Position numbers and translations under genes: made by a program | Notes under the pieces: generated by a model | Database searches by the model: none | Told to the model about the DNA's origin: nothing | The model's input: only the letters and a program-made list of their open reading frames with translations | Origin: a virus | IMG/VR virus record: IMGVR_UViG_3300010274_000002 | Direction: 5' to 3' (one strand) | Length of the DNA: 64,000 bases | In this document: piece by piece, positions 1,611 to 55,754 of the stretch | How the letters are laid out: each line of letters begins with the position of its first letter | How positions within the stretch are numbered: position 1 is the stretch's first letter

Positions 1611-2110
1611 AGGAAACCCTGAAGCAGAAGGAGGCGTTCGAGCTTTACTACAGCCTTGGCGATAAGCGCTCGCTCATGTCAGTGGCGCGTCAGTGCGGTG
1701 TCAGTGAAAGGACAGTGGCTCGCTGGAGCAAGTTGTTCAACTGGCAGGAACGGGTCGAGCAGAGGGACATCGAGAATGCCCGGCGCCTCGAAGAGAAGAC
1801 CAACGAGACCGTTGTCGCGACCAAGGCGAACTACCGCAAGATCATCAAGGCCGCAATCGGCCGCTGGGTGAAGCGGTTCCAGGGCGGCGAGATCGACGTC
1901 GAAAGCGTGTGGGATCTGGAGCGACTCGTGAAGCTGGACCTCCTGCTGATGGGGGAACCGACTGACCGGTCGGAGCACGAGAGTCGAGTGACGGAGCGGC
2001 ATGAGTACGATATCGTCCAAAGAATCATCGCGGACCCTGAGGCCCGGGAGCTTGCAAGGCGCATCTATGTTCGGGTGGCTCCCGGACGAGAGGACGCTGG
2101 TCAGGGCTGA
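1607..2110 (+). CDS. terS: terminase small subunit (HTH)
   Basis: HTH-like RSLMSVARQCGVSERTVARWSKLFNWQERV; GTG overlaps the methylase stop; directly precedes the large subunit. Confidence 0.75.
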   Translation: MKETLKQKEAFELYYSLGDKRSLMSVARQCGVSERTVARWSKLFNWQERVEQRDIENARRLEEKTNETVVATKANYRKIIKAAIGRWVKRFQGGEIDVESVWDLERLVKLDLLLMGEPTDRSEHESRVTERHEYDIVQRIIADPEARELARRIYVRVAPGREDAGQG

Positions 2111-11015: not shown

Positions 11016-11049
11016 CGTGCGCGGAAATCGCGTTACGGGGTTGAGGGCC

Positions 11050-14000: not shown

Positions 14001-14919
14001 CCGGCTCGTGTCGCTTCCGCCGGACGACAACCTCCAGGTGGCCCCGAAGCTGGCGCAGCCGAAGGGGTGGCTCACGTTCGAGGGAGTGTCGGAGCCGGGC
14101 GAGGTGGGCGCGACCACCGGCAAGTACGCGCGCTTCGACATCGCGGACTCTGGGACGTACGAGGCGGGCGTGTGGCGCGAACATGCCGTGGAGTACTTCT
14201 TCCACGGCAAGAAGCTCAAGGGAAGGCTCCTCGTGCAGTACGCGCCGCTCGGCGGCCGCAGGGTGTGGATCATAGACCGGCCGGAAGACCAGAAGCCGTA
14301 CGCCGAAAGCCACGGCCTTGGGGATGTGGTGCAGGAACTAAAAGAGAAGGGCCAAAAGTGGCTTTGGTGGAAGAAGCCTGGCGAGAAGCCCCGATTGATA
14401 GATGTCGGGGCTTTCGAGTTTAGGAAGGCCTCCGCCCGCAGAACCGTCCCGATCGCCAAGGTGGACGCGGCGAGGCAGATAGTCTACGGCATCGTGCTGG
14501 ACCCTTACATCGTGGACTCCCAGGGCGACTGGGTGCCGGTGCTCGAGGTCGAGAAGGCCGCGCACAGGTACTTGGTGAAGTCGCGCACCATAGGAGACCA
14601 GCACCAGAAGAAAGCCGACGCCGAGCTCGTCGAAAGCTGGCTCGTGCCCTACCCTACGCCCGAGGACTATCGGAAAGCGATAGCCGGGGAGCCGCACAAA
14701 GTGTATCGGCTCAAGTTCGGGGAAAGCGAGGTGCACTCGGGCGCGTGGGTCGTAGGCATCCACGTCATCTCAAAGCGGTTGTGGCAGGAGGTTCAGTCGG
14801 GCGCGAAGACGGGTCTCAGCATCGGCGCGGTAGGCGAGCGGACGCGCAACGTGACGCAGGCTTTGCCGGAATTCGAGGTGGTCGAGCCCGAGGAGACGCC
14901 CGTGTTCACGGCTGGGTAG
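11050..14919 (+). CDS. multidomain fusion: nucleotidyltransferase-like, ATP-dependent DNA ligase, Dam-like adenine methylase, LigD phosphoesterase-like, XkdF-like prohead protease
   Basis: GSVVQKG...GDVDLVIR; SPKVDGFR, EGELQ, FLYDLLY, EGVV; EPYAGGASLFW and YIDPPW; RFVLHEH...HSDLRLE; IAKVDAARQIVYGIVLDPYIVDSQGD. GTG 11050 has an RBS; ORF track starts at 11017. Confidence 0.85.
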   Translation: MRITDITAEALAETNDKELLSLHRRCHQLAGSLFATARERAEDDDEGKVTWEDLVNAHALIAAEMEAREMNHDVRDRLDRESARVEKGAVSLEYLKARLAEAQDVVVVENFISIAGSVVQKGERAGDVDLVIRQDRRDTSLEILTRKVFDPEKQGYLHWVYQASGPHADYIPAFDLVLRPKKEFKVHTVKAGLKPITRYTPSKPAMMGFTEFFSADELWEKWASKQGVPLYVSPKVDGFRCIMQKAGDRVSIYFEDSKEERSDRLPSLKNALLDAPDCIIEGELQAAKDRKFLARPQVFSMLAGQLEAQPYVFLYDLLYVEPEGDVHEKPFSERYELLKSLGKKLGERFVVLPQLLVKGEGEFKRAAKEMVSWQPFRGAGLAIEGVVARRSDMAYTFAATDDYAKFKTWCELKVKVLKVEKTANGYVYECALRDDETGEDVVLGKTFVSKEKLASEGDTLNVMVEELLLYPDGKVAWGKPYPMGPDRSRPAYTVSQAIDIARRGKVLKELQQASKEESAGEVVERRVKDAYLRKLTAGGFKPGADYTLHEIGSTERGYLYRVDDGYGEWYLLAAPERVHFIAVKMADVQAFSAGRLLKGVLTKERVKELGWSTDAWDRALLKWFGGNTAAGAAQGDADAVAKALSKPFSSPGGKDAWVKLLLAKIPVHKVYVEPYAGGASLFWAKEPSEKEVLSDIDPDVVAVYKFLQSASDDDFEWMRKQKWEWSPSHFKLLKESEPRSLRERAYRYKHLNLFSVRGDGEVLYTTDRARGLTGQAFLRNLEKYRDRLRNVTILQRDALAVMKTYDSPDTFFYIDPPWKPVGTGKEWHDFDETTFVEAVLALKGKVLISYQGTLPLADWHKKSYTRAGGGIAANSKQTLYWNYDERKATANKAAAAPADEGETRGERAEKFWKENWHKLYPKSGKGRFVLHEHWRGLSEDEVNLPREELIRRGHSLHSDLRLESDGVLHGWTVFLGKAEDNATNRLVSLPPDDNLQVAPKLAQPKGWLTFEGVSEPGEVGATTGKYARFDIADSGTYEAGVWREHAVEYFFHGKKLKGRLLVQYAPLGGRRVWIIDRPEDQKPYAESHGLGDVVQELKEKGQKWLWWKKPGEKPRLIDVGAFEFRKASARRTVPIAKVDAARQIVYGIVLDPYIVDSQGDWVPVLEVEKAAHRYLVKSRTIGDQHQKKADAELVESWLVPYPTPEDYRKAIAGEPHKVYRLKFGESEVHSGAWVVGIHVISKRLWQEVQSGAKTGLSIGAVGERTRNVTQALPEFEVVEPEETPVFTAG

Positions 14920-14937
14920 GTAGAGGGGTGATGTTTA

Positions 14938-16002
14938 TTGGGCGTCAACAAGCTGGCGAATCTGGACGTCTCGGAGATATCGCTCGTGGACAGGGCCGCC
15001 AACAAAAGGCGGTTCTTGTTTTTCAAGGCAAAGGGAGGTGACGGGAACGTGGGCAAGGACGTTGTCGAGCTTGATCTCGAAGACGAAATGGACGAGGAAG
15101 AGAGCCTCAGCGAAGAAATCGAGAAAGCCGTGGACGAGAAAAAGCTGAAGAGCGCGGTGCAGGCGCTTGTCAGTGCTCTCGGGCAGACGGAGATTCCGGA
15201 CAAGGCCGCCAAAGCCCTCAAGCAGCTAGCCAAGCTGGTGGGCCTGGACGCCGAGGAGTACGGGTACGGTTACGGGTATCCGGCGCCGCAGAAGGCGAAG
15301 GCTGAAAAGAGCCTTCTCGACCGGATCAAGGCCCTCGTGTTCCAGCACGAGACGGAGTCCGTGAAGAAGGCCGCCGAATTCGAGACCGCGATGGCGGCGC
15401 AGGAGAAGACCCAGGACATCTCGACGGCTATCTGGCTGTTGCAGGACATAATCCGGGGGATCCTCCAGGACGAAGAGGGCAACAAAGTCGAGCGGGTTAA
15501 GGCGAATGTCGCGGCATTTCAGGGCTACGTGACCGGGCTCCTGGAGCGGGAGGGGGTTCAGAAGGCCCGCGAGGCTTTGGAGAAGGCGGGGCGCAAGATC
15601 AGCGCGGCGCGTCTCGCGAAGCTCAGGGAGACCCACCAGAATCTCGTAAGCCTTGCCGCCGCGCTCGCGGAGCTCATTCAGGAAGCCGAAACGGTCGGCA
15701 CTGAGGAAGGAGGCACGGAAGTGACCAAGGAAGAGCTTGAGAAGTTCAAGGCTGAGGAGCTTGCGCCGGCTGTGGGCGACGCCGTTCAGAAGGCGCTCGC
15801 TCCGCTCGAGGAGAGGATTGCGAAGCTCGAGAAAGCCCACGAAGAGAAGAATCTAGAGGAAACCATCAAGAAGGCGTTGGAGCCGCTCGCCGCAAGGGTC
15901 GAGACCATCGAGAAGTCCAGGGCGGCGTCTCAGAGCATCCCGAACGAAGCCCCGCCTGCAAGCAAGGGGACTTTCACCGGGGTGCTCTTCGGGCGGAAGT
16001 AG
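14938..16002 (+). CDS. capsid scaffold / XkdF-associated head protein
   Basis: N-terminal EISLVDRAANKRRF motif, long Glu/Lys/Ala helical body; lies between protease and major capsid protein. Confidence 0.7.
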   Translation: MGVNKLANLDVSEISLVDRAANKRRFLFFKAKGGDGNVGKDVVELDLEDEMDEEESLSEEIEKAVDEKKLKSAVQALVSALGQTEIPDKAAKALKQLAKLVGLDAEEYGYGYGYPAPQKAKAEKSLLDRIKALVFQHETESVKKAAEFETAMAAQEKTQDISTAIWLLQDIIRGILQDEEGNKVERVKANVAAFQGYVTGLLEREGVQKAREALEKAGRKISAARLAKLRETHQNLVSLAAALAELIQEAETVGTEEGGTEVTKEELEKFKAEELAPAVGDAVQKALAPLEERIAKLEKAHEEKNLEETIKKALEPLAARVETIEKSRAASQSIPNEAPPASKGTFTGVLFGRK

Positions 16003-16039
16003 AGCCGAGAAAAAACACGGATTGAACGAGGGCCAGCAA

Positions 16040-16068
16040 GAGAAGCGCAACTGCGCTTCTCTTTTATC
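16040..16068 (+). other. strong stem-loop with U-rich tail immediately upstream of the major capsid gene
   Basis: GAGAAGCGC-AACT-GCGCTTCTC followed by TTTTATCT. Confidence 0.5.
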
Positions 16069-16093
16069 TTGCGCCGCAAGGAGGTCAGGTTGA

Positions 16094-17032
16094 ATGGACA
16101 ACAACGAGCTTCTGCGGAAGGCTGACATGGTGCTGGCGGACCTCGCCGCCGGCGGCCAGTTGCAGCCGGAGCAGGCGAACAAGTTCATCGACATGGTGAT
16201 CGACACGCCGACCATCTTCAAGAGCGCGCGGGTCGAGAGGCTTTCGGCCAGCAAGAGGATCATCGACAAGATCGGGTTCGACCAGAGGATACTGAGGCCC
16301 GCGGTTGAGAACACGGCGCTTGCGGCCGACCAGCGGGTCAAGCCGAAGACCGGCAAGGTCGAGATCGACACCAAGGAAGTCATCGCCGAGGTGCGGCTCG
16401 GCTACCAGATCCTCGAGGACAACATCGAGGGCAAGAACCTTGAGGATCACATCATGCGGCTCATCGCCGACAGGGTGGCTCTCGACCTCGAAGAGCTCTT
16501 CATCCAGGGCGACACCGCGAGCTCGGATCCGTATCTCGCGCTCATGGACGGGCTCCTCAAGAGGATCACCTCGCACGTGGTGGACGCCCAGAAGGCGACC
16601 ATATCGAAGGCGCTGTGGAAGGAGCTCTTCAAGGCCGTTCCGGTCAAGTACATCCGGAACAAGAAGGAGTGGGGCTTCTACACGAGCCACAGCGTCGAGG
16701 TCGACTGGCGCGACTTCCTCGCTGACCGGGCCACCGGCGCCGGCGACAGGTTCCTCCTCGAGGACGTGCCGGCGGTGGCGTACGGCGTGCCGGTGTACGG
16801 GTGCGCCATGATGCCGGAGGTGGAGGATGGCGCCACGCCACCCAACACGATAACCTCGGCGATCTTCACGCACCCGCAGAACATCATCGTCGGTTTCCAC
16901 CGCGACATATCGGTCGAGACCGACAAGGACATCACCGCTAGGCAGTTCATCATCGTGGTGACCTGCCGCGTGGGCCTCGCGCTCGAGGAAGAGGACGCGA
17001 CGGCTAAGATGATCAACATCAAGGTGGCGTGA
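16094..17032 (+). CDS. major capsid protein (HK97 fold)
   Basis: 312 aa; QLQPEQANKFIDMVID, DLEELFIQGDT, DGLLK, HPQNIIVG pattern typical of P2/HK97-like MCPs; position in head module. Confidence 0.9.
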   Translation: MDNNELLRKADMVLADLAAGGQLQPEQANKFIDMVIDTPTIFKSARVERLSASKRIIDKIGFDQRILRPAVENTALAADQRVKPKTGKVEIDTKEVIAEVRLGYQILEDNIEGKNLEDHIMRLIADRVALDLEELFIQGDTASSDPYLALMDGLLKRITSHVVDAQKATISKALWKELFKAVPVKYIRNKKEWGFYTSHSVEVDWRDFLADRATGAGDRFLLEDVPAVAYGVPVYGCAMMPEVEDGATPPNTITSAIFTHPQNIIVGFHRDISVETDKDITARQFIIVVTCRVGLALEEEDATAKMINIKVA

Positions 17033-17382
17033 TAGCCATGTATAGAGCGACATTGAAAGAAGGGAAGACCTACCACGTCGGCGGGGTCACCTTCACCAGG
17101 GGGACCCCGCGCGTGGTCTCCGACGAACTCGGCGAATACCTTGCGACCTTGCCGGTGTTTGACCTCGAGGCGGTGCCGTGCCATGAGGAGCCTTTGGAAA
17201 CGCTGCACGCAACGAACTTCGCCGTGCTGACCCGCATTGCTGAGTCTGAACAAGACCGGGTGATCCTCGCCAGACCGGCGACTGAACAAGACGAGGTGCC
17301 TCCCGCGGGATCGGCGGTGGAGGCGTCAGAGAAACCGGAGGGTCGCAAGCGCGGGACGAAGCGAGGGAAGCAAGATGCCTGA
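17029..17382 (+). CDS. YqbF-like domain protein
   Basis: MYRATLKEGKTYHVGGVTFTRG...VSDELGEYL resembles the Bacillus skin-element YqbF N-terminal domain. Confidence 0.6.
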   Translation: MIAMYRATLKEGKTYHVGGVTFTRGTPRVVSDELGEYLATLPVFDLEAVPCHEEPLETLHATNFAVLTRIAESEQDRVILARPATEQDEVPPAGSAVEASEKPEGRKRGTKRGKQDA

Positions 17383-17608
17383 GAATGTGAAAAAGGAGTA
17401 CAAGACGACAGACTTGGCCCTCGCAGCCTACATCAAGATGCGGGGCCTCCGTCTTGTCCGGACGGAGAAGGACGAGTTCGAGCGCACGGTGTTTGTGTTT
17501 GACGACGGAATGGACCTTGCGGACGCGTTGCGGGTGGAGTTCGCGAACTCCGAGTGCTGCAAGTTCGACGCAGAGCTCCGGCACTTGAAGAAGCTCATCT
17601 ACAGGTAG
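17375..17608 (+). CDS. DUF5659-like small protein
   Basis: YKTTDLALAAYIKMRG...VFVFD pattern. Confidence 0.55.
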   Translation: MPENVKKEYKTTDLALAAYIKMRGLRLVRTEKDEFERTVFVFDDGMDLADALRVEFANSECCKFDAELRHLKKLIYR

Positions 17609-17617
17609 GCGGTCGTC

Positions 17618-18223
17618 ATGTATGCGACAGTCCCCGAGATACGCGCGGAAGGAGTCACGGCGGAGCAGGCGAGCGACGCCCAGGTGGAGGCCGCCATCAG
17701 GCGGGCGACCGTGCTCATCGACACGCTGACGGGGCAGTGGTTCGAGCCGCAGGACTGCACGTTCAGGTTCGACGGCCCCGGAGCGTCCACGCTCTTTCTC
17801 AAGGTGCCCGTGCTCTCCGTGCGCGAAGTCAAGGTTGACGGTCAGTCCGTCGACTTGGCGGAGGTGGTTGTTTACAACTCCGCGAAGGACAGGCGGAACC
17901 CGAGGCTTTACTACGCGCCGGGATTTCCGAAGGGCAAGGGCAACGTGGAGGTCGCCGGGTCCTTCGGCTACGTGGAGCAGGACGGCTCGACGCCCGAGCT
18001 CATCAGGTACGCGTGCAGGCGTATAGTCGTCTCGTCCCTCGCGCCGCTCGCCGACAGGGACGCGCAGGAGGAGAGGAAGCGCGTCCGCATTGCCAGCGAG
18101 ACGACGGACGGGCACTCGTACACTCTAGTCAAGGACGAGCGGCCGGCGGGCCTGACGGGTGATCCCGAGGTGGACGGCATACTGGCGCAGTACATGGCGA
18201 CGCCTATCCCAGGGAGCGTCTAG
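17618..18223 (+). CDS. head-tail connector/adaptor
   Basis: MYATVPEIRAEG...IDTLTGQWF; SETTDGHSYT; position after MCP. Confidence 0.7.
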   Translation: MYATVPEIRAEGVTAEQASDAQVEAAIRRATVLIDTLTGQWFEPQDCTFRFDGPGASTLFLKVPVLSVREVKVDGQSVDLAEVVVYNSAKDRRNPRLYYAPGFPKGKGNVEVAGSFGYVEQDGSTPELIRYACRRIVVSSLAPLADRDAQEERKRVRIASETTDGHSYTLVKDERPAGLTGDPEVDGILAQYMATPIPGSV

Positions 18224-45039: not shown

Positions 45040-46287
45040 TCATTTATCCGACAGCCCGAGAGCGCGCCGGAGGTCATTCAGCATTTCCCTTTCTCCCGAC
45101 GGGATCGCGTGGGCGTAAATCCTCAGTGTCGTCCCGACGTCGCTATGCCCAAGCCGCGCGGCCACGTAGTGAACCGGCACGCGCGCCTTCAGGAGCAAGG
45201 TCGCGCAGGTGTGGCGTAGCCCGTGAAACTTGATTGGGCGCACTCCGGCTCTCTTTATGATCCGCAGGAATTCCCTCTCGCCAAGGTTATTGGCTTGCAA
45301 GGGTCGCCCGATCACACCCTGTCGGCGGAATTTGTCGGGCTCCTTCGCAAACACGAGGCCGAAGTCATTGTATGCCGCGCCCACACGGAGTTTGATTTCG
45401 GCTTGGTGCTTGCGGTGCGCCCTGAGCAAGTTCAGCGTTTCCGGGGCGACCATAATCGTGCGCGGCCGTCGGTTCTTGACAGGCCCGAATATAGGTTCTT
45501 TCGAGGCGCGCACGAGCGAGCGCTCGATGCGGATCGTGCCGGTTTCCCAATCGATGTCTTTCCATTGCAACGCACAGAGTTCGCCTTTTCTCATTCCGGA
45601 ATCAAGAGCGAGGGCGAAGAACGCCGCCCACTGCGGCCCGGCCTCTCTCGCCGCTGCGAGGAACCTCGCTGCTTCCTCGGCTTCCCAGCAGTTTTCAAGA
45701 ACGTCCGCAGGCGAGTCCTCGCGACTTCTGGCGGGTTTGCCCATCATGTTTGAGGCCACGTTTTCCCGCACAAGGCGCTCCATTACGGCCGCGTCCAGTG
45801 CCGAATGGAGCACCATGTAGTGGAGTTCAAGCGTCGTCATGCTTTGGGTCTTGCCCAACTTATCGAAATAACGACGCAGGTGAGTAGTGCGGAGGTGTTG
45901 GATGGGGACTTCGCCGAGTTCGGGTATGAGGTGCAAGCGTATGATGCTTTCATAGCGGCTAGCAGTCGTCCCCGATTTCTTGGCCGTCTTGAGGATAGTC
46001 TCTCTGGGGTCTCCGATTGCGCATCCGTATTCGGCTCGAAACCACTCTCGAAGCCACTCTCCAAGGGTCATGTCATCAGGCGCGACGTAGCTTTCATCGT
46101 CAAGCTCTCTCTGCAGCTGGCGCAGCACTCTCTTGGCTTCGGTCAGGGAGCCATAAACGACTCGCGATGGTCGGATGCGTCGGCCGTCAGCATCGAAACC
46201 GGCAGAGGCCCGGACCAGGAATTTGTTGTCGTCGACTTGTATGATCTGGCCGTCGCCCCAGCGGGCGCGGGTCTTCTTGCGTGCCAT
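45040..46287 (-). CDS. int: tyrosine recombinase (integrase)
   Basis: SGMRKGEL, FHGLRHT, LGHSD...TLRIYAH catalytic R-H-R-H-Y set; GGAGG RBS before ATG 46287. Confidence 0.96.
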   Translation of the reverse strand: MARKKTRARWGDGQIIQVDDNKFLVRASAGFDADGRRIRPSRVVYGSLTEAKRVLRQLQRELDDESYVAPDDMTLGEWLREWFRAEYGCAIGDPRETILKTAKKSGTTASRYESIIRLHLIPELGEVPIQHLRTTHLRRYFDKLGKTQSMTTLELHYMVLHSALDAAVMERLVRENVASNMMGKPARSREDSPADVLENCWEAEEAARFLAAAREAGPQWAAFFALALDSGMRKGELCALQWKDIDWETGTIRIERSLVRASKEPIFGPVKNRRPRTIMVAPETLNLLRAHRKHQAEIKLRVGAAYNDFGLVFAKEPDKFRRQGVIGRPLQANNLGEREFLRIIKRAGVRPIKFHGLRHTCATLLLKARVPVHYVAARLGHSDVGTTLRIYAHAIPSGEREMLNDLRRALGLSDK

Positions 46288-46445
46288 GTGTGTCACCTCC
46301 AACGGAGGAAGGGTCCAGGATGTCAGATGAACCATGTGTGCGGCTCTGCACCCATTCAACGAATCTCGGTTATTCCCTTTTGTTCATCCTGTCTCGCCAG
46401 CAACGTTCGAAGATGTTGTCGTTGACAGCCTGTCTCCTCCCATTG

Positions 46446-47837
46446 CTACTCAACTGTCCGCAGAGCCTCTCTGTCCAATTCGGTCGAGGGGCTAGGACGA
46501 TAGTGCTCAAGCAATGAGCGGAACGTTCCACTCAGCTGGCATTCGTGCAGCTTTTGTGGTTCCCTATGAAGGCATTCCAAGACATGTATGAACTCGTTCC
46601 TTTCTGCCTCGGAAAGGCTCCGGAAAAGACTCCTCCAGCGTTTAGCTTCCATTTCATAGCGCCTTCTGTAGATAATGTAATCATCCGGCATACACAAGAT
46701 TTCTACAAAGTCTTCGTATGTCTTGCCAAAAGCTGTTTCAAAGAACTCCCTTTTGGGACTAACCAACCCGCGTGTGGCGTTGAGCACACACTGGATTCCG
46801 CGAAGGTATCGCCAACTCCACGCAGGACCAATATAGTGCCTGTCCACACTGGTGATAGGTATATACCTCATAGGAAATCCCGTAATCCTCACACCATACT
46901 GCTCGGATAGCTCGATATTCAGGCGCATGCGATGATAGAAGCTTTCAGGTGTGTCGTCAAAGTTATACATTATGTAGGTTGTGAACTCCTGAAACCCTTC
47001 TCTGGCCAGAAGCTCGATGGCATTTCGGTAGTAGGGTTCCATGGCATCAAAATCGAGCGCAAGCCTAACCGGTGAGAGGGCTATCGATGAAAGCAATCGT
47101 GCGGTGTTTTCATTGACAAGACGTGCATCAATTCCCTGAGTGAAGTCTACAACCCTTAGCCTGTTATTCCTTTTGGCTCCCCTACCAAAACCTAGGTCGA
47201 CTATCTCTGCAACGATTTGGTCAACATTATCCGCAGCCAATACGTTATTGTCCAACAGGATTAGATGCTGTTTTTCTCCGTATCTTTCAGCTATAGCCTT
47301 CACCTGATCATGGAGGCTCAAGAAGCGCTTGAATTCAGGCTCAAGCCGTGGGACAGCACAAAATGAGCACCGCCGTATACACCCCAACGTAGCACGGCAG
47401 AAGTAACTGTCTTGATGGTGGTAACTGTGGCCAGTACCTTCCAAAATGCCATAATCAGGAACCAAATAGGCAATCGGCAACGATTCATCGTCGATCATAT
47501 TTGCCCTTATTAACTGACCCTGTACGATTCGACAATCCACGCGTTGGCGAACATACTCGGGGTGCAGAGTTACACCAATTCCCCCGACTATCAAGTGCTC
47601 GGGTTTCTCCACTGACTGCCTGTAGTACTTCAAGGTCTTGACAGTACGCGGCAACTCGTAAGTGAATAGAGAGGATACATATACCCTGTTCCAGATAACG
47701 CTACGAAGTGGACGATTCAGCCCACGCACGAACGTGACGGCATCGCCACGCTCTTTGTAATACGTCGCTATACGCATTAATCCAAGGGGCGGGAACTTCG
47801 AGTCATAATCTGGTTCAACAAGCAAAATGTTTGCCAC
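46446..47837 (-). CDS. radical SAM protein with B12-binding-like N-terminal domain
   Basis: ILLVEPDYDSKFPPLGLMRIA; RATLGCIRRCSFCAVP (CX3CX2C); LLDNNVLA. Confidence 0.82.
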   Translation of the reverse strand: MANILLVEPDYDSKFPPLGLMRIATYYKERGDAVTFVRGLNRPLRSVIWNRVYVSSLFTYELPRTVKTLKYYRQSVEKPEHLIVGGIGVTLHPEYVRQRVDCRIVQGQLIRANMIDDESLPIAYLVPDYGILEGTGHSYHHQDSYFCRATLGCIRRCSFCAVPRLEPEFKRFLSLHDQVKAIAERYGEKQHLILLDNNVLAADNVDQIVAEIVDLGFGRGAKRNNRLRVVDFTQGIDARLVNENTARLLSSIALSPVRLALDFDAMEPYYRNAIELLAREGFQEFTTYIMYNFDDTPESFYHRMRLNIELSEQYGVRITGFPMRYIPITSVDRHYIGPAWSWRYLRGIQCVLNATRGLVSPKREFFETAFGKTYEDFVEILCMPDDYIIYRRRYEMEAKRWRSLFRSLSEAERNEFIHVLECLHREPQKLHECQLSGTFRSLLEHYRPSPSTELDREALRTVE

Positions 47838-49394
47838 CTATGGTCGGTCCTTTCCCAAGCCATACTTACGTAAGATTGCAGTCTTGGCAAGTCTGTAGTG
47901 TTCCTCGTCAAGGACATCTCTCAATGTAGCTAGAATGTCTTGGATAAGCTTGCGCTGTGTGCGGTCTAGGGATGATTTTAGCTTCCGTACAACAAGTTCC
48001 CCTGCCTGTTCAACCTCCTTAGCAGTCTTATCTAGCAGTGCTATTGTGCGCTGCAGCTCTTTCTGCTCCGTTTCATTTCTATCTGAACTCAAGGCTAGCT
48101 TTGTCTTGTCAATCTCCTTTTGAATGCGGTCCAAAAGCTCTTCTTTGTGCTCTTTGGAAGTAAACCCCGTTTGAATTGTGTCTTCGGCCTCCCGCATAAC
48201 TTGTTGGGCGGCTTTGACAATCTTTGGTACGGGCCTATTTCGTGCCTGGGATGCGGTCCTGATGTCGCTGGATCTTTCTCGCAGAAACCAGATTAGCTGC
48301 TGCCGAATGCTAGACCACTCTTGGTTCGCTTCAAAGCCATCCCTCCGTGCATTCGGGATAGCAGCCTCAGAAAGCACATGTATCTCTCCTATGTAATAAC
48401 CGTTGAACCGTTCGTTGCTGCCAGCTATCTCACGAAACAGTTCTGCTACGCGTTCAGGACCACCTATTGCGATATTGTGTTTTCTGAACCTGAAACCCGC
48501 CGCTTCTTCCTCTCGAATTGTTCCCAGTAGGTTACTCTTTCCGTACCACAACCAAAAATGGGACTGAGGCCCTGCGTTCTCGGGATAGAACACGACATCC
48601 TCTATTTCGATCTCGTAGTTGTTTCGAATCGTGTGGTAGTGACCTTTGTATGGCTTGAATACCTGGCGCTGGAAGTCGGGACCTTTGATAACCAAGTTCA
48701 CACATGGGAGGTACAGACCATGCTTCACGGTCCATTCGGTGATTTTTGGTGCGAATATGAATCGCTGGGCATCAAACCCAACAGGAGCCACCTGGCTGAG
48801 GTAAAACTCCAATTCATGCCAAGAAAGAAAGAGATCGGCAACGCTCATGTCGATATCGTTCATCTGCGCTTCGAAATAGTGGTCCGACTCAGATGCTGTC
48901 TCGCTTTTTATAAGGGTGTTATGGTCAATCACTTCCGACAACTCTTTGGCTTCCACGTTTCTTCGTGTAGGAGAGATTTGGCGGCGTATACCCTCACAAT
49001 CCCAACTCACCACGGATGCCTTAGTCTCTCCTGAAAAAGAAGTGATAAAACTGAGGTTACGACAATACGCGACGCCAGCAATACGTCCTATGCCCCGAAA
49101 TCCAGCATCGCTTCCCAACTGCTTCGCAGACATCCCAATGTTTATCAGCCTCTCTCGCACAAGGTCGCTCGGAACTCCTTCACCGTTATCCCTTATCGAA
49201 AGTCGGCGGTTCTTGGGGTCAACGAAAATCTCTATTTTGCCCTCACCGGGAGCCAGTAAGCCTTTGGCTTCCGCTCTGCGGATGGAGTCTGCGGAGTTTT
49301 GTACAAACTCACGGAGTGTGTCAAGCGGCTGAGCGTACATTCCAGTTGTGAGAGTCTCCAGAACGAAGGCACCTATTTTGGCCAAGATACTCAC
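47838..49394 (-). CDS. GHKL (Hsp90/MORC-like) ATPase
   Basis: LREFVQNSADS, IRDNGEG, GFRGIGR GHKL motifs; GTG overlaps the herA stop (GTGA). Confidence 0.85.
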   Translation of the reverse strand: MSILAKIGAFVLETLTTGMYAQPLDTLREFVQNSADSIRRAEAKGLLAPGEGKIEIFVDPKNRRLSIRDNGEGVPSDLVRERLINIGMSAKQLGSDAGFRGIGRIAGVAYCRNLSFITSFSGETKASVVSWDCEGIRRQISPTRRNVEAKELSEVIDHNTLIKSETASESDHYFEAQMNDIDMSVADLFLSWHELEFYLSQVAPVGFDAQRFIFAPKITEWTVKHGLYLPCVNLVIKGPDFQRQVFKPYKGHYHTIRNNYEIEIEDVVFYPENAGPQSHFWLWYGKSNLLGTIREEEAAGFRFRKHNIAIGGPERVAELFREIAGSNERFNGYYIGEIHVLSEAAIPNARRDGFEANQEWSSIRQQLIWFLRERSSDIRTASQARNRPVPKIVKAAQQVMREAEDTIQTGFTSKEHKEELLDRIQKEIDKTKLALSSDRNETEQKELQRTIALLDKTAKEVEQAGELVVRKLKSSLDRTQRKLIQDILATLRDVLDEEHYRLAKTAILRKYGLGKDRP

Positions 49395-51031
49395 CTCGTT
49401 ATTGCTGCCTTGGGCTGGTAATAGCACGGGTGTGGAAAACGTACCTTAACCAGTTCAGTCTTGAATACGGCATGCTGCAGCAGGAGCGTTCCTTGCGGCA
49501 GTCGGGAGAGCACGGATTTGTGTGTGTCTGAGAGGTGCCGAAAATCAGGACACTTACTGATCTCGATAGGCGTAGTGCGCCCATATACATTGGTGCTGCA
49601 GTTGCCAAGCACGCGTTCATGAACACCGCTCCGGAACTGCTCAGCACCAAAGAGTATCACGCCCAGAGACCGACCTCGCTCCGTTACCTCCAAGAGGCTA
49701 CGTGTGAGGCTTCTTGCGATGTCAGCGCCCTTGGGCGCGTACTTGTTCAGCTCGTCAGCAAATATGACGACTGTACCCAGTCTACTCCCGTCGACATCTT
49801 CATCATCCCCAAGTTTTGCGGCATAGATCGTCTGAATAACATCCCCAACAACCAGACACTGCAGATAATCCGGTAAGGGTTCTATGTCTATGACAAGGAC
49901 GTCACCCCGCTCTAGTTCGGCAAGAGCTTCACGGATGAGCCTGTGCCTCTTTTCTGCCTTGACGGACCGCTCGGTGAATAGGTCGTGCTCTGTTCGCGAG
50001 CGGAGAAGCCGACTAAACCTTCTCCAAGAAGCTTTGGAGATATCTCCTGCCTTTGAGCTTCCTTTAACAGTCCGTTCAGCAATCTCGTTTCTGAATGTGT
50101 CCCAACTGTCGCACTCAATATCGCCAATATCATGCATAATGCTCTCAATCGTTGCGTTCGGGTCATCAATGTCCGAGAACAGAAGCGGTAGTTTTCGCCT
50201 GGCAGTCTCCACATCGTAGAAATAGTTCATGCATCTGTTTGCCATCTGCTGTTGCGCGAGAATGGCGGGGTCGGCGTGGGAGTTCGTGTAGCCGGTTTTT
50301 TCGCGCGCGGCATACGGGTATAGGTAAGTTACGTTTTGGAACGGCTCAGGGTTTAGACCACACTTTTTCCACTCTTCCCTTTGTTCTGTCGTTAGGTCTG
50401 GATTGTCGATGTCGATGGACAACAGATCATTGCCCTTCACATTGAAAATAACCATAGTCACTCTATCCCCAAGGCATTGCTGAATGGCGTTGAGCAAAAA
50501 CATGGCGTAGGATGTCTTGGTGGCAAGCCCAGAGATTCCCGATATGTTGAGATGTGCCCCCTCCGGCCCCAGCAAATACGCGGCTTCAAATTCCACAGGG
50601 ACCTCTATTCCATTCGAATTGCGTATGTATCCAGCCGGTACAGGAGTTTTAAATGCCCGCAATCCCAGGGCCTCCCTAATGCCCTCGGCGTCCGCCCACT
50701 CCACCTGTGCACCATTCTTTACCGGCATTTCTACTTCACGAGTGTTAAACAGCACCTCAGCCTCGGCAATTGTAGTACTGATTCTCTGGTTTTGTGGCTC
50801 GACATCTACTTCGCCAAAATCAGAGGAAACGAAATTCGACAGGTGACCTGTACTGTCCGTGATGTGTAACAACTCTTGCACCATCGCGTACGTATAACTA
50901 TCTCTGATGTGTGGAATCCTCACCACATCAAAAGGGCGAAGCACCTCGCCTTCCTTCACCCAAAACCTGAGCGTGGTACACGACGTAGGCTTGTTCTCGG
51001 TCGCAGTAATCCTCCCGATTATGGAGCTCAT
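49391..51031 (-). CDS. herA: HerA-like FtsK/HerA family ATPase
   Basis: HAS-barrel-like N-terminus; variant Walker A GISGLATKTS; VIFNVKG; Walker B IFADELNKYAP; ERGRSLG. Confidence 0.8.
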   Translation of the reverse strand: MSSIIGRITATENKPTSCTTLRFWVKEGEVLRPFDVVRIPHIRDSYTYAMVQELLHITDSTGHLSNFVSSDFGEVDVEPQNQRISTTIAEAEVLFNTREVEMPVKNGAQVEWADAEGIREALGLRAFKTPVPAGYIRNSNGIEVPVEFEAAYLLGPEGAHLNISGISGLATKTSYAMFLLNAIQQCLGDRVTMVIFNVKGNDLLSIDIDNPDLTTEQREEWKKCGLNPEPFQNVTYLYPYAAREKTGYTNSHADPAILAQQQMANRCMNYFYDVETARRKLPLLFSDIDDPNATIESIMHDIGDIECDSWDTFRNEIAERTVKGSSKAGDISKASWRRFSRLLRSRTEHDLFTERSVKAEKRHRLIREALAELERGDVLVIDIEPLPDYLQCLVVGDVIQTIYAAKLGDDEDVDGSRLGTVVIFADELNKYAPKGADIARSLTRSLLEVTERGRSLGVILFGAEQFRSGVHERVLGNCSTNVYGRTTPIEISKCPDFRHLSDTHKSVLSRLPQGTLLLQHAVFKTELVKVRFPHPCYYQPKAAITR

Positions 51032-52144
51032 GCAGTCGCCTCCTTAAGTGTGCTACTCGAACGTGGCCGATGGCCTGGTGTTCTCATCCTTTCGATGGTG
51101 GCGGTTGCGGGCCACTATCGAGGACTAACCTCGAAAATGTCCGACGCTCGCCGTTTTCGATAGTCTTGAGCGCCACTTTGGCATGGGGGTAGTACTAAGT
51201 AAAAGTGCATAAAAGCTGCCGGTTATCCTCAGCGCGTCTCAGTCTGACGGTCCACAGTGACGTCTTTCGCGGTCTTACTGAGCGATAATCCCATACAATG
51301 GATACAATCAACAGGTTCGTGCGCTCCCATTTGTCACCATATTTGTCAGGCGCATGCTACGTCAGGCCCCGTGCAGAGGCAGTGCTTACCTCTAGCAGAG
51401 AGGAAGACTCATGATGTGCGTCGACTGGTTGACCTACAGCAGCGACACGAACTCAGGAGATTCGCGCGTCGTGCATTCAGAGGAGAGGCGTTTCGTGCTC
51501 ATGTGGTCCTCCTTTCGTCACGGGTCTCCTCATCGGCCCATCAGCTAGGTAAGACCCACGGCTGCGACCGTGACATCATGCGCGTTTGGCTCGACCAACC
51601 CTCTCCGAGGGTGTCAACGCCGATGGTCTGTGGGACGCGGAACAAATCCGGGCGCCCCCCCAAGGCCGGTAAAGCCGCCCGGTGGGCGCTTTCGCACGCC
51701 GTAGGTATGGGTCATACTGTGTTCGGACTCGGCATTATGCGCCGGACAGCCAACGCCCTGCGGGCCATACTGGCAACGACGGGAGTATGACCAATATCGC
51801 CTTGCCAGATGGGCTGCGCGTGGCGGTTCAATTGCGGAAGCGGCGGCGACCCCTTGGCACGCGGATTGCGGACCGGATTGGTCGCCCCGCTGGCCACTGC
51901 ACTGAACGGCGACCGCCCACGTTACAAAGCAGCCCCCCATAACGGTCTGCGGTCTCCATCATCCCGGGATGAAATGGCAACCACCCGCTGTTCTCGAAGT
52001 AAAGACATTCTGCCACACAGGAGGTCGCTAGCAATCCTGCCTCCCAACGGGTCGCTACGACCTCTTGAAACGAGGTTGCGAGGTGGGGCAGTCGTCCTTC
52101 CGATCTCGGAACAGGAGCGCGGATGCCTGTCTGGCCGAGTAGCG

Positions 52145-53215
52145 CTAGAACAGTGCAGTGAACGCAGTCGTACTCATGAACAGAGTTCGGACATAAGACT
52201 CCGCCATATAGATGGGGTAGATGTGGCTTGCCCAGCGCGAATCCGACCCATAGGGAGTCACATTTCTTTCCCTAAGGATGTGTCCGGATATTGTATCTAT
52301 CCGGTCGCTTTCAAATCCTTCCTCCTTGTCTTCTGGGTCAATAGCGTAGCACTCAACCTTTACTATCCCGTCAAGCGGGTTCGGCATCACGGAAGGGTTT
52401 CGTAATCTCAGATACCAAGCACCGAGCACTTTATCGTCATCGATTATCTTGAACACCGAGGTTCTTTCAGCGAAGTCAAGACTCGATGCGAGCGCACCGA
52501 CATCTTCTCGATGTTTCCTAACCCTGAAGCTAGGACGAAACGTCTTGGATATGCCCAGCACATTTCTGAACTGGACCAAGTCAAATGACTTCTTGAATCG
52601 CAACGGTCCGTCTACTACCAGAAGACGGTCATTAGCTAGCAAATGCCGTGCTGCTATTCTCAACACGGTGTCGACTTCCATCATGTGCATTTCGCTCATT
52701 ATTCTAGCGATGCCTAGGTCCACCGGGTCTCTATCAGGCTTGACAGTATATCTCAGGGCAACAAACTGCACACGGCAATGCTGGTTTATCTCTGCCTGTA
52801 GATGGGCAAGATCATCGCCCGCGAGCTTATCAGGAAATGCGATGATATTCCTGAGACAGCAGAAGTCTCTCATTGGCTTGAGGTGCCCGTCATCATCCCG
52901 TGCAATGACAGCTACCCCAACCTGCCCGGCAATGATGGGGAGATATCGGCCTCCCAAGATTGCGTCGGCCACCTTATACGTTCGCCTCGAACCGTCGAGG
53001 AAATAACGCAGTATCGTCGGAATGCCGTTGGCGACTTCCACAACCTGTTTCTTGCCCTTGACTACACGAGGCCGTTCAAACGGTGATTCCACAGGATGTT
53101 CGTCGCTATCCGTGTATTCGGAAAAACGTTCAAAGTCGAGGCTTACGCGCTCACACGCCAAGCATGCTATTCCGTTCTGTTTGACTACGTCCAGTACAGA
53201 AAGCATGGCAATCAA
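52145..53215 (-). CDS. nurA: NurA-like nuclease
   Basis: YFLDGSRR and LLVVDGPL acidic motifs, LGISKT, HIYPIYMAE; co-oriented with herA. Confidence 0.7.
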   Translation of the reverse strand: MIAMLSVLDVVKQNGIACLACERVSLDFERFSEYTDSDEHPVESPFERPRVVKGKKQVVEVANGIPTILRYFLDGSRRTYKVADAILGGRYLPIIAGQVGVAVIARDDDGHLKPMRDFCCLRNIIAFPDKLAGDDLAHLQAEINQHCRVQFVALRYTVKPDRDPVDLGIARIMSEMHMMEVDTVLRIAARHLLANDRLLVVDGPLRFKKSFDLVQFRNVLGISKTFRPSFRVRKHREDVGALASSLDFAERTSVFKIIDDDKVLGAWYLRLRNPSVMPNPLDGIVKVECYAIDPEDKEEGFESDRIDTISGHILRERNVTPYGSDSRWASHIYPIYMAESYVRTLFMSTTAFTALF

Positions 53216-53636: not shown

Positions 53637-54296
53637 TCATCTTACGGCCTCGAGAAGCTCGGCCAGACCATCGACCATCGACTTGGTCGTCGACATCTTG
53701 CGTACGAAGTAGGCGTAGTTCTGCGGCGCGAACGCGTCTTCTTTGGGGATGTAGGGCATTAGCGCCTCGACCTTGGCTATGAGCTTCTCAGCGTCAGACA
53801 AGTTGCTCCGAATGATGGCTACGAGCTGGGATCGCGACAAGTTGCTGAGGTTTTGCTTCCCCGTAGCGATCTCTGTCAACGTAGAAACGGCGAAACCGAG
53901 TTCCTCGTACGCCTCGGCAAACATCTCCTCGGCGATGAATGGAGCGCCTATCCGAAGGGCCTTTTGGCGGATCCCCCTAAGCCTTTCTAGGCCATTGGGT
54001 GACAGGGCATGCGGCGACGTCATTTGCAACATGCCGTCTGCCACGTCGACCACGTGATAGATTGTGGCCGCGTAGTTCCTGTCTTCGAGCACCGAGGCTT
54101 CTTCAAGAGCGGTTTCCAGTCGGGCTAAGAGATCAGACAGCTCGTCCGCGGTCTCCACTTGCAGGAGGTCGCGTGGGTCCGGCCATTGCGTGGGTGAGGA
54201 ATACGCAACAGCGCTGAGTACCATGGATGACAACAGTGCTACACATAGAAACATGAAACCTTGTCGATTCACGTTTCTCATCCCTCCGGCAGTCAT
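53637..54296 (-). CDS. hypothetical secreted helical protein
   Basis: FMFLCVALLSSMVLSAVAYS signal peptide; exact start uncertain. Confidence 0.65.
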   Translation of the reverse strand: MTAGGMRNVNRQGFMFLCVALLSSMVLSAVAYSSPTQWPDPRDLLQVETADELSDLLARLETALEEASVLEDRNYAATIYHVVDVADGMLQMTSPHALSPNGLERLRGIRQKALRIGAPFIAEEMFAEAYEELGFAVSTLTEIATGKQNLSNLSRSQLVAIIRSNLSDAEKLIAKVEALMPYIPKEDAFAPQNYAYFVRKMSTTKSMVDGLAELLEAVR

Positions 54297-54444
54297 CCGA
54301 TACTCTGTCGCGTCTAGCTTGGCCGACTATCGCAATCAGCGAGCGCCGGTTGCGTCGCGATTGGGATCTCCCGGGTCGTCGCGCCGTCCGTCTCCGGATT
54401 TCGGACCATGACATGAGCTCACTTCTGGCGACACGGGCTCCGGA

Positions 54445-55464
54445 TTATGGGTTTCTCACGTCAAGCACTATCGGCTCGCTCACAGCCGTCAGTCCGCTGG
54501 TCGACTTGACGAACAGCCGGACGGACATCCAGTTCTGTCTTGTGATGAGCGTCGTGTCAAGAGGGTACGCGCCGTCCACGGTCGCGTCTTCATCGAACTC
54601 TTGCCAGGCCAGGGGCTCTGATTGTCCGAACGCATAATCGACCCATACGCGGTCCACGTCAGGTGAGGCCGTGTAGTTCAACTCAACGGTGCCACTGACA
54701 GTCGTGCCGCTAGCTGGGTTTGTGATAGAGACCGTCGGAGCCTTGCCCTGGATGGATCGATCCACGATGAACTCCGAAACAACCGGATCCCCGACATTTC
54801 CGGTGACGTCTCTCGGAACGATTGTGATTTCATACAACCCATCAGGCCAGCCTCCCTGCGGCACAAGGCGGATTTGGTCCTCATAGTCTGTCCGAGAACA
54901 ACTGAGCGATGATCCATCAACGCTCACGTTGACCTCAGTGCCAGTCTCATCGGTCCCCTCGGTCGCCCCGCCGTCGACCACGTTCACGAGGATCTCCGCA
55001 GGCTGGGTATTGAGGACTGAGTGGTTCCTTGGAGTCACCGAGACGTCCGGAGGAGCATTGTCGATGTTGACCACGCGCTCATCGACGACGACCTGGTTCG
55101 CGGATGTCGTTGCCGTGCCTCGGATCGTGACCCAGTTGAGGCTTGTGAAAGTCGTGTCGAACGTGTATTGCCCGTCCAGGTCCGGGTCAGAGCCGGCTGC
55201 GTGCCAGGGCTGATTGGGATCCTGCCGGCCGTAGGCCCAGTCGAAAGCCACTGCCGTAACATCATCACTCACGTAGCGGATGATGAAGCGACCAGTGATC
55301 GTGGGCTCCGTTCTGGACGACGCGGCAGTCGGAACCCCTGCGAGCTTGCGGAACGTGACATCCGTAATGCGGAACCGAGCGACCTGGGTCGGACGACTTC
55401 CAAGGCAGCCGCCGACTCCAAGAGCCGTGATGACCATGATTGCCAGAACAGCACCCTTCCTCAA
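54445..55464 (-). CDS. lipoprotein with Ig-like domains
   Basis: Lipobox ITALGVGG-C; PPDVSVTP and APTVSITNPASG Ig-like starts; GAGGAGG RBS fits TTG 55464. Confidence 0.75.
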   Translation of the reverse strand: MRKGAVLAIMVITALGVGGCLGSRPTQVARFRITDVTFRKLAGVPTAASSRTEPTITGRFIIRYVSDDVTAVAFDWAYGRQDPNQPWHAAGSDPDLDGQYTFDTTFTSLNWVTIRGTATTSANQVVVDERVVNIDNAPPDVSVTPRNHSVLNTQPAEILVNVVDGGATEGTDETGTEVNVSVDGSSLSCSRTDYEDQIRLVPQGGWPDGLYEITIVPRDVTGNVGDPVVSEFIVDRSIQGKAPTVSITNPASGTTVSGTVELNYTASPDVDRVWVDYAFGQSEPLAWQEFDEDATVDGAYPLDTTLITRQNWMSVRLFVKSTSGLTAVSEPIVLDVRNP

Positions 55465-55754
55465 GGTCATCGCCTCCTCGAAAACGGACATCAAGCGACA
55501 GGGCTCGCGCGGCTCGAGCGTGGTCTCTGGATCTCCTGTCCTTCCAGCCATCGCGTCTCGCGGCATGTCGGCCGAAGTATCGCCAGTCTCAGCTTCACCA
55601 GGGCCTCATCGACGTCAAATCGATCCGCTAACTCCCGTACTCAGGCCGCGCCATGGCTCAACGCTTCACGTAGCTTGTCCGCCGAAATGAGGTGCGCGGC
55701 CGCGCCCATCCCGCGGCCCGGTACTCGGCCCGGCTGGCGCCCGCCTACCTGCGA

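Follow-up and report, generated by a model that had tools for sequence, protein, structure and literature searches.

The temperate myovirus genome recorded in IMG/VR as IMGVR_UViG_3300010274_000002 carries, beside its integrase gene, a cassette of four genes for a NurA-like nuclease, a HerA-type ATPase, a GHKL ATPase, and a B12-domain radical S-adenosylmethionine (SAM) enzyme, and the locus raises the question of what such a set of proteins does in a phage. An earlier reading of the 64,000-nucleotide (nt) stretch of DNA analyzed here (the window), made from the letters alone and hereafter called the original prediction, had proposed that the cassette is a candidate undescribed defense or DNA-modification system. 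Our analysis indicates that the cassette is best read as a HerA-nuclease restriction-like defense in which a radical SAM module takes the position that a methyltransferase holds in relatives. We put the probability that it is a restriction-like defense or superinfection-exclusion system in the accessory (moron) slot of the phage at roughly 0.55, and a defense function as such is a slightly better than even bet. The combination corresponds to no named system that we could find, as the original prediction had suspected. PADLOC-DB v2.0.0 gives no system-level match, with no hit for the NurA-like and radical SAM proteins and marginal hits to unrelated models for the GHKL and HerA proteins. Searches of the open literature found no paper in which one system joins NurA to a radical SAM enzyme, or HerA to both a GHKL protein and a radical SAM enzyme, and the cassette does not appear in the Aravind-group papers about MORC and about the Dnd machinery.

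The nurA gene (52145-53215, minus strand) encodes a 356-residue NurA-like nuclease with an RNase H-like fold. The protein has no match in Pfam (including the curated NurA model), NCBIfam, PHROG, or PADLOC, and the sole match of its family profile to the PDB is Deinococcus radiodurans NurA, with an E value of 0.014. We compared an AlphaFold 2 model of the protein (predicted local distance difference test score, pLDDT, of 85.6) with known structures using Foldseek, and the NurA structures of D. radiodurans (7f6d_G, 3e-12), T. maritima (1zup, 7e-12), and S. solfataricus (2ygk, 2e-7) came out on top, with TdpB (8wfd_G, 6e-5) also among the matches. Across 25 sequences the invariant residues are D74 (in FLDGS), E180, D202 (in DGPL), K224, R327, and H331, which is consistent with an RNase H-like active site. 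D53 and K201 of D. radiodurans NurA (drNurA) are required for activity, with K201 assisting catalysis (PMC9960219). In a profile alignment, K224 of the phage protein falls on the lysine of a VKT motif in the drNurA chain, which we read as K201 on the assumption that a tag offsets the numbering of that chain; D74 is equated with the catalytic aspartate of drNurA by motif, not by structural superposition. Judged by its sequence, the phage NurA is a divergent subfamily without a curated sequence model. At least 647 homologs (640 clusters at 50% identity) are present in a set of 5.8 billion proteins, and all are annotated as hypothetical.

The herA gene (49391-51031, minus strand) has its own ribosome-binding site, AAGGAGG, and encodes a HerA-type ATPase/translocase of 546 residues. 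The protein has no Pfam match, and its family profile finds D. radiodurans HerA (7f6d_B) with an E value of 1.1e-38, in two aligned stretches that include the P-loop. The Walker A box, GISGLATKTS (K172), is invariant in the family, as is an ERGRSLG motif, and the Walker B box reads IFADE (D426, E427), with an invariant DE. The original prediction had drawn attention to this Walker A box as non-canonical. The motif is present as described, but it is not peculiar to this copy; D. radiodurans HerA has a P-loop of the same unusual type, GISGVATKTS, so the motif is a trait of a bacterial HerA clade and not a sign of decay.

Three characterized groups of proteins offer points of comparison for the NurA-HerA pair. 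D. radiodurans NurA-HerA combines a translocase with a nuclease, digests DNA from its ends, and serves as an end-resection repair complex (PMC9960219; PDB 7F6D/7WRW). It is the best sequence or fold match for both cassette proteins, and it shares with them a P-loop of the form GISGxATKTS, adjacent genes, and the catalytic aspartate and lysine of NurA. In contrast to the D. radiodurans pair, the cassette adds a GHKL protein and a B12-domain radical SAM enzyme, is rare, mobile, cross-phylum, and phage-borne, has a NurA that is approximately 16% identical, and lies in contexts that do not indicate a repair role. The second comparison is with the TdpABC phosphorothioate defense, in which a HerA-like hexamer and a NurA-like nuclease (TdpAB) are reported to form the restriction arm of a modification-based defense and are paired with a modification gene (8WFD; cited in PMC12914056). 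Both systems have a HerA-like and NurA-like pair, and the fold match to TdpB extends this likeness to the nuclease itself. However, the cassette has no PP-loop/DndC-like TdpC gene and carries the GHKL and radical SAM genes in the TdpC position, and TdpA is not reached by the cassette HerA profile. Lastly, the Sir2-HerA and DUF4297-HerA systems (Gao_Her, 'Nezha') likewise couple a HerA-family ATPase to an effector enzyme in a mobile anti-phage operon. Anti-phage HerA structures match our HerA profile weakly (1e-4 to 3e-3), and the PADLOC HerA models match the phage HerA at 7.6e-5 or weaker. Unlike these systems, the cassette has NurA as its effector, with neither a Sir2 nor a DUF4297 domain found, a HerA far nearer to the Deinococcus type, and two extra enzymes.

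The first of these extra enzymes, the GHKL ATPase, was called as an open reading frame (ORF) of 529 residues at 47838-49427 on the minus strand; its probable true span is 47838-49394, which gives 518 residues from a GTG at 49394. It matches Pfam HATPase_c_3 at 6.7e-10 and NCBIfam HSP90/HtpG models at 1.6e-7 and 1.4e-5, the latter two far under the family cutoffs. Its profile reaches the HtpG N-domain at 6e-6 and topoisomerase VI-B and MutL more weakly. These sequence matches are confined to the N-domain; the sole hint of an S5-fold transducer domain like that of MORC and MutL is a look-alike cluster in the Atlas that has Morc6_S5 in 20% of its members. The Bergerat motifs are invariant (E40, N44, D80xGxG comprising D80, G82, and G84, and GFRGIGR), the middle region contains a conserved IPNARRDGFE, and the C-terminal tail is helical and charged. 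By these matches and motifs, the protein is a Bergerat-fold ATPase of the Hsp90/HtpG type.

The radical SAM gene (46446-47837, minus strand) encodes 463 residues. The protein matches Pfam Radical_SAM at 5.6e-7 (30.3 bits, cutoff 29.5), Pfam B12-binding at 1.5e-3 (18.8 bits, under the 32.1-bit cutoff), and phrog_9298, which is annotated as 'radical SAM domain protein', at 3e-41. The three cysteines of its CX3CX2C motif (C153, C157, and C160) are invariant. A B12-binding-like Rossmann domain precedes the radical SAM domain, and a helical domain (approximately residues 350-450) follows it. An AlphaFold 2 model (pLDDT 91.5) matches MgmA (8e-12) and TsrM (1e-10) in Foldseek, along with AprD4, MiaB, TokK, CysS, RimO, and OxsB and, further, BchQ/BchR, BchE, HpnR, and Fom3. 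These matches fall into two groups, the cobalamin-type class B enzymes and MiaB/RimO/AprD4, with E values of 1e-8 to 1e-13. The N-terminal Rossmann domain is seen at the fold level (MgmA, TsrM, TokK), where AprD4 and MiaB, which have a similar N-terminal domain without cobalamin, score equally well. The cassette enzyme shares with class B radical SAM methylases (MgmA, TsrM, TokK, CysS, BchQ/R, Fom3) and with MiaB/RimO the Rossmann-like N-domain, the radical SAM barrel, and the CX3CX2C motif. It differs from them in having no auxiliary-cluster cysteine triads and in having a C-terminal helical domain that is particular to the cassette family. We know of no member of these families that acts on DNA within a defense system. 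A prediction of a complex between the GHKL and radical SAM proteins scored 0.00, which carries no weight either way. In sum, the identities that the original prediction had given to the four gene products are borne out by profiles and folds.

Shorter, stand-alone relatives of the radical SAM enzyme are found in Clostridium phage phiCT453B (L098, 4965-5840) and in a Bacteroides LoVEphage (L099, 4977-5894). They bear the same annotation as phrog_9298, and their identity to the cassette enzyme over its residues 12-300 is approximately 25%. Their genes lie in phage replication/DNA-modification regions, in LoVEphage beside Dam methylase fragments and a gene like that for 3'-phosphoadenosine 5'-phosphosulfate reductase. 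They would fit the pattern of orphan modification enzymes, at an identity to the cassette enzyme of only about 25%.

All four cassette genes lie on the minus strand immediately upstream of the tyrosine integrase gene (45040-46359, minus strand; Phage_integrase 4.6e-27, Phage_int_SAM_3 1e-6), which lies outside the cassette, 87 nt downstream of the radical SAM gene. Their GC content is 0.48-0.53, compared to 0.60-0.65 in the phage structural genes, and lies 10 points under that of the phage. The arrangement of four co-oriented, low-GC genes in a cargo slot beside the integrase is therefore as first described. Likewise, the two downstream junctions can be read directly from the sequence as they had been reported. 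At the herA/GHKL junction, ACGAGGTGAGT, the herA stop codon TGA (49393-49391) overlaps the in-frame GTG at 49394 to form GTGA, and this GTG appears to be the real GHKL start since it yields MSILAKIG, which matches the homologs. At the GHKL/radical SAM junction, the stop codon TAG (47840-47838) is followed without a gap by the radical SAM start codon GTG at 47837. The inference of an operon with translational coupling may hold for these two junctions but does not hold for nurA and herA, which are separated by 1113 nt, a gap that the original prediction had left unmentioned; thus, the phage copy is not one tightly packed four-gene operon. The catalytic motifs of all four genes are intact in the phage copy. 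A promoter and terminator scan of the region gave a signal no higher than background, a blastn comparison of the whole region with the phage collection gave no DNA-level match, no tRNA was found anywhere in the window, and an Rfam search of 44.5-55 kilobases (kb) gave only a sub-threshold psRNA14 outside the cassette.

The insert between nurA and herA (51032-52144) has a GC content of 0.55-0.69, above that of the cassette. No other cassette locus has it apart from one closely related phage contig, L100 from Logan, which shares with our phage the DUF4236 gene and the nurA-insert-herA layout. The nurA and herA genes are 96.3% identical to those of L100, and the mismatches fall at third codon positions in 32 of 40 cases for nurA and 42 of 61 for herA, a pattern that points to purifying selection on both genes. 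The identity of the insert is 91.3%, it differs by single-base indels as well as by mismatches that show no third-codon-position excess, and it is thus non-coding and nearly neutral. We rejected the possibility that the insert is a coding gene, given that its ORFs have no family match, that it has no codon periodicity, and that the indels relative to L100 shift the frame. We also rejected the possibility that it is a repeat, given that no second copy exists in the window or in the fetched loci and that its inverted repeats are short and imperfect. The insert has no Rfam match. A small ORF upstream of nurA is 59 residues long in the window and 101 residues in L100, and is poorly conserved.

If the four genes form one system, they should keep company elsewhere, and they do; rare co-occurrence, which the original prediction had named as a ground for refutation, is not what we observe. 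Using our own hidden Markov models, we found all four genes on one strand at 57 of the 61 species-genome loci that have at least 5.5 kb of sequence downstream of nurA. The four exceptions resemble decayed remnants that keep nurA and the radical SAM gene. Gene order and strand are the same in all five of the complete chromosomal loci that were fetched, in a pattern of 358 residues, 553 residues, a HATPase_c_3 protein of about 520 residues, and a protein of about 460 residues. Contig MT836743, from a human-gut phage, carries all four in identical order, with no gap and at 32-41% identity. In a scan of one genome per species, carriers number 156 of 185,579 (0.08%) and span more than 10 phyla, including Chloroflexota, Bacillota, Planctomycetota, Armatimonadota, Ignavibacteriota, Bacteroidota, Deferribacterota, Thermodesulfobacteriota, Verrucomicrobiota, Bdellovibrionota, and Patescibacteria, and the phyla are intermixed in the HerA tree. 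Taken together, the motifs, co-occurrence, purifying selection, and mobility show the cassette to be a widespread mobile unit that is apparently functional in the phage.

The cassette varies in its flanks and, at some loci, in its content. The flanks differ by locus and include integrases, transposases, toxin-antitoxin genes, AbiEii/AbiEi, and Schlafen-AlbA2 proteins. When we scanned 148 proteins within 5 kb of 22 loci with PADLOC, a scan that had no control set, the matches at 1e-10 or better included MADS, DRT, DndC, AriA, SoFic, DpdF, a type II methyltransferase, and several PDC candidates. At two unrelated loci (L002:6797-8314 and L102:14677-16347), the gene that directly follows the cassette encodes a Schlafen AlbA_2 and HATPase_c_4 protein and may be either an optional fifth gene or a neighboring single-gene defense; L102 has the full cassette on an integrative element, and its Schlafen-AlbA2 gene is the same as that of MT836743. 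A Bacteroidota-type variant, represented by 12 loci, has an insertion between the GHKL and radical SAM genes. In L040, the sole locus in which this insertion was scanned (14267-18034), it encodes an AAA_15/AAA_21 (OLD/AbiEii-like) ATPase, a 286-residue protein, and a second GHKL paralog. L044, L049, L058, L066, L067, L071-L073, and L082 have a second GHKL gene and a gap of the same size as that in L040, and the variants L051, L060, L077, and L084 have a diverged second GHKL gene, with L051 also having a 336-residue protein.

This distribution bears on whether the cassette could instead be a mobile repair or recombination module, in which NurA-HerA would resect DNA ends, a MutL/Hsp90-like GHKL protein and a lesion-repairing radical SAM enzyme similar to spore photoproduct lyase would assist, and phage replication or lysogen survival would benefit. 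The closest characterized homologs do form the D. radiodurans end-resection complex, spore photoproduct lyase is among the weaker fold matches of the radical SAM enzyme (about 4e-4), and the phage encodes other DNA end-repair domains, a ligase and a LigD phosphoesterase. However, very patchy, cross-phylum spread in flanks rich in mobile and defense genes is atypical of repair genes, the GC content of the cassette is foreign to the phage, and the sister clades described below carry DNA methyltransferases, with a type IIG restriction-modification enzyme adjoining in two of the three arrangements. We regard a repair role as distinctly improbable.

The phage-borne copies raise another possibility, namely that the cassette is a weapon of the phage itself, with the radical SAM enzyme hypermodifying phage DNA against host restriction and NurA-HerA degrading the unmodified host chromosome during lytic growth. 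Carriers do include the phage of this window, L100, MT836743, Marinitoga camini virus 1 (MCV1), and IMG/VR contigs, and the short radical SAM relatives lie in phage replication modules. Nevertheless, the great majority of copies are chromosomal and outside recognizable prophages. Relatives occur in only 8 of 2.9 million IMG/VR contigs, 6 of which have the whole cassette. Furthermore, the cassette lies on the integrase/repressor side, in the lysogeny module, in both the window and MCV1, which fits expression in a lysogen. A role in phage offense or self-protection thus strikes us as very unlikely.

We return to a restriction-like defense, for which the most informative evidence comes from NurA-HerA pairs with other partners. 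In L104, L105, and L107-109, nurA and herA are followed, through overlapping junctions, by a gene for a type II N6/N4 DNA methyltransferase, and neither a GHKL nor a radical SAM gene is present (L104:1471-5911, L105:2514-6708, L107:6010-10125). These loci represent three divergent metagenomic arrangements, between which NurA is 54% identical. Cassette profiles match their NurA at 1e-33 to 1e-36 and their HerA at 1e-120, and the methyltransferase scores 38-48 bits in Pfam (cutoff 26.7) and 5e-57 to 5e-62 against PADLOC MTase_II; PADLOC has no model for the NurA of these units. They resemble the cassette in their homologous NurA and HerA, in gene order, and in overlapping junctions, and differ from it in having a methyltransferase in place of the GHKL and radical SAM proteins and in belonging to a separate HerA clade. 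This three-gene unit may itself be an undescribed restriction-modification-like system. We considered the large methylase upstream of these units as a further member and rejected it, as it is a complete, separate type IIG enzyme; such an enzyme lies beside the unit in L105-L109, that is, in two of the three arrangements, with L106 truncated after nurA. A PIN-domain gene lies by the unit in L107, the only locus scanned for PIN.

Other NurA-HerA pairs have a radical SAM enzyme and no GHKL protein. L103 (6839-10852) has nurA, herA, and a gene for a short radical SAM enzyme of 374 residues that lacks the C-terminal helical domain, and MCV1 (L001, 6927-10753) has nurA, herA, and a convergent short radical SAM gene in its lysogeny module. 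In these three-gene variants the radical SAM enzyme has 360-374 residues, and both copies are in prophage or lysogeny-module settings. The C-terminal domain of the long radical SAM enzymes may be a docking site for the GHKL protein, an idea that follows from the joint occurrence of that domain and GHKL and that rests on only two counter-examples. In a HerA tree with a midpoint root only and with the three-gene rows on long branches, the two four-gene clades (one with short radical SAM enzymes that includes this window, one with long ones) join at 100/99 support, and the methyltransferase-linked clade and the three-gene radical SAM clade form separate, well-supported branches. This suggests that a conserved NurA-HerA chassis takes interchangeable partners, and that these include a bona fide DNA-marking enzyme. 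The strongest argument at hand that the GHKL and radical SAM proteins supply self-marking is that a DNA methyltransferase occupies their slot in relatives. What is new here is that the nearest non-cassette NurA-HerA relatives carry a type II methyltransferase in the position of the GHKL and radical SAM genes, which supports a modification-restriction logic without proof.

How might the four proteins work together? From homology to the D. radiodurans proteins and from the Tdp precedent, a NurA dimer seated on a HerA hexamer would thread and degrade DNA. The radical SAM enzyme, with the GHKL ATPase helping it as a clamp on DNA or as a loader, would supply the discrimination between self and non-self. 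Most probably, the radical SAM enzyme would put a covalent mark on resident DNA, with the GHKL protein presenting the substrate as an ATP-driven DNA clamp, and unmarked incoming DNA would be destroyed. We hold such a modification-restriction logic, which we infer from the TdpABC precedent and the methyltransferase-bearing relatives, only tentatively and at less than even odds. It is somewhat more doubtful that the full scheme applies, in which a GHKL-loaded radical SAM enzyme would install a new radical-chemistry DNA mark (for example, C-methylation at an unactivated position), NurA-HerA would destroy unmarked DNA, temperate phages would spread the system, and some phages would counter it with stand-alone radical SAM copies.

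Several observations weigh against a restriction-like defense. Classical modification genes often stand alone, and yet the full-length radical SAM gene was never found without nurA in the sampled Bacteroidota genomes; in this sample of 400 genomes plus a reference genome (G001), all three of the other genomes with a full-length radical SAM gene have nurA within 4-9 kb. The radical SAM enzyme is only 10-16% identical to any characterized enzyme, the enzymes closest to it in fold have proteins, small molecules, and tRNA as their substrates and not DNA, and the use of cobalamin that its predicted fold suggests is putative. The nearest characterized NurA-HerA, that of Deinococcus, is a repair complex (PMC9960219). 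Defense-rich flanks, coming from a scan without a control set, are no more than suggestive. Finally, in the phage, nurA may be poorly co-expressed with its three partner genes because of the 1.1 kb insert.

The constant company of nurA would also suit a sensor-effector system of the abortive-infection type, in which no self-marking would take place. The GHKL protein would sense phage DNA or proteins, the radical SAM enzyme would make an antiviral or signaling nucleotide or activate a partner by radical chemistry, and NurA-HerA would degrade DNA indiscriminately. A full-length radical SAM enzyme that never occurs without nurA fits an obligate signaling partner as well as anything, and HerA is reported to act as an effector scaffold or activator in the Sir2-HerA and DUF4297-HerA systems. 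Moreover, radical SAM enzymes that make small molecules act in defense, as in the viperins and in Ophion, a radical SAM anti-phage operon with PHP and PRTase (bioRxiv 10.1101/2025.09.30.679545). In the stand-alone prokaryotic viperins and in Ophion the radical SAM enzyme is essential to anti-phage defense, but their radical SAM classes and partners are other than those of the cassette, and NurA, HerA, and GHKL proteins are absent from them. The fold of the cassette enzyme is like that of B12-domain class B enzymes or methylthiotransferases and not like that of viperins. The sister clades have a DNA methyltransferase, which is a marking enzyme rather than a signal generator, and Pfam, PADLOC, and NCBIfam scans revealed no second-messenger-binding domain in NurA, HerA, or GHKL. 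We consider a sensor-effector system unlikely.

The remainder of the window identifies its source as a temperate myovirus genome, with genes for terminase, portal, MuF, sheath, tape measure, baseplate J, and amidase, and three of its other regions deserve mention. The large subunit of the terminase (2001-4514) is split by an intein that contains a LAGLIDADG homing endonuclease domain (Intein_splicing 1.5e-11, LAGLIDADG_3 2.2e-7). In a single ORF of 1300 residues (11017-14919), a D12 Dam-type methylase and a LigD 3'-phosphoesterase are joined to an ATP-dependent DNA ligase and an XkdF-like serine protease domain. Two genes (53637-55566) separate the cassette from the DUF4236 gene, one for a 219-residue protein with a hydrophobic N-terminus and one for a 373-residue protein with bacterial Ig domains; both are missing from the close relative L100, which constitutes an indel polymorphism in the accessory region.

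If the cassette is a defense, then it constitutes a widely spread family, present in Chloroflexota, Bacillota, Bacteroidota, Planctomycetota, gut Mucispirillum and Bacteroides relatives, and phages, with a discrimination step that would use radical SAM and possibly cobalamin chemistry. To our knowledge, radical SAM/cobalamin chemistry is not known in restriction-modification biology. Should a covalent mark prove to be its basis, the cassette would stand as the first restriction-modification system built on radical SAM chemistry, and a new DNA modification could come to light. Cultured carriers include Polaribacter sp. HL-MS24, Algoriphagus jejuensis, Chryseobacterium defluvii, Dysgonomonas termitidis, and Mucispirillum schaedleri. 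The phage copy indicates that the cassette is moved about by temperate phages, for which it probably serves as a superinfection-exclusion moron. More broadly, the NurA-HerA chassis, found with a methyltransferase, with a short radical SAM enzyme, or with a GHKL protein and a long radical SAM enzyme, would represent a natural experiment in the re-coupling of restriction arms to new marking enzymes.

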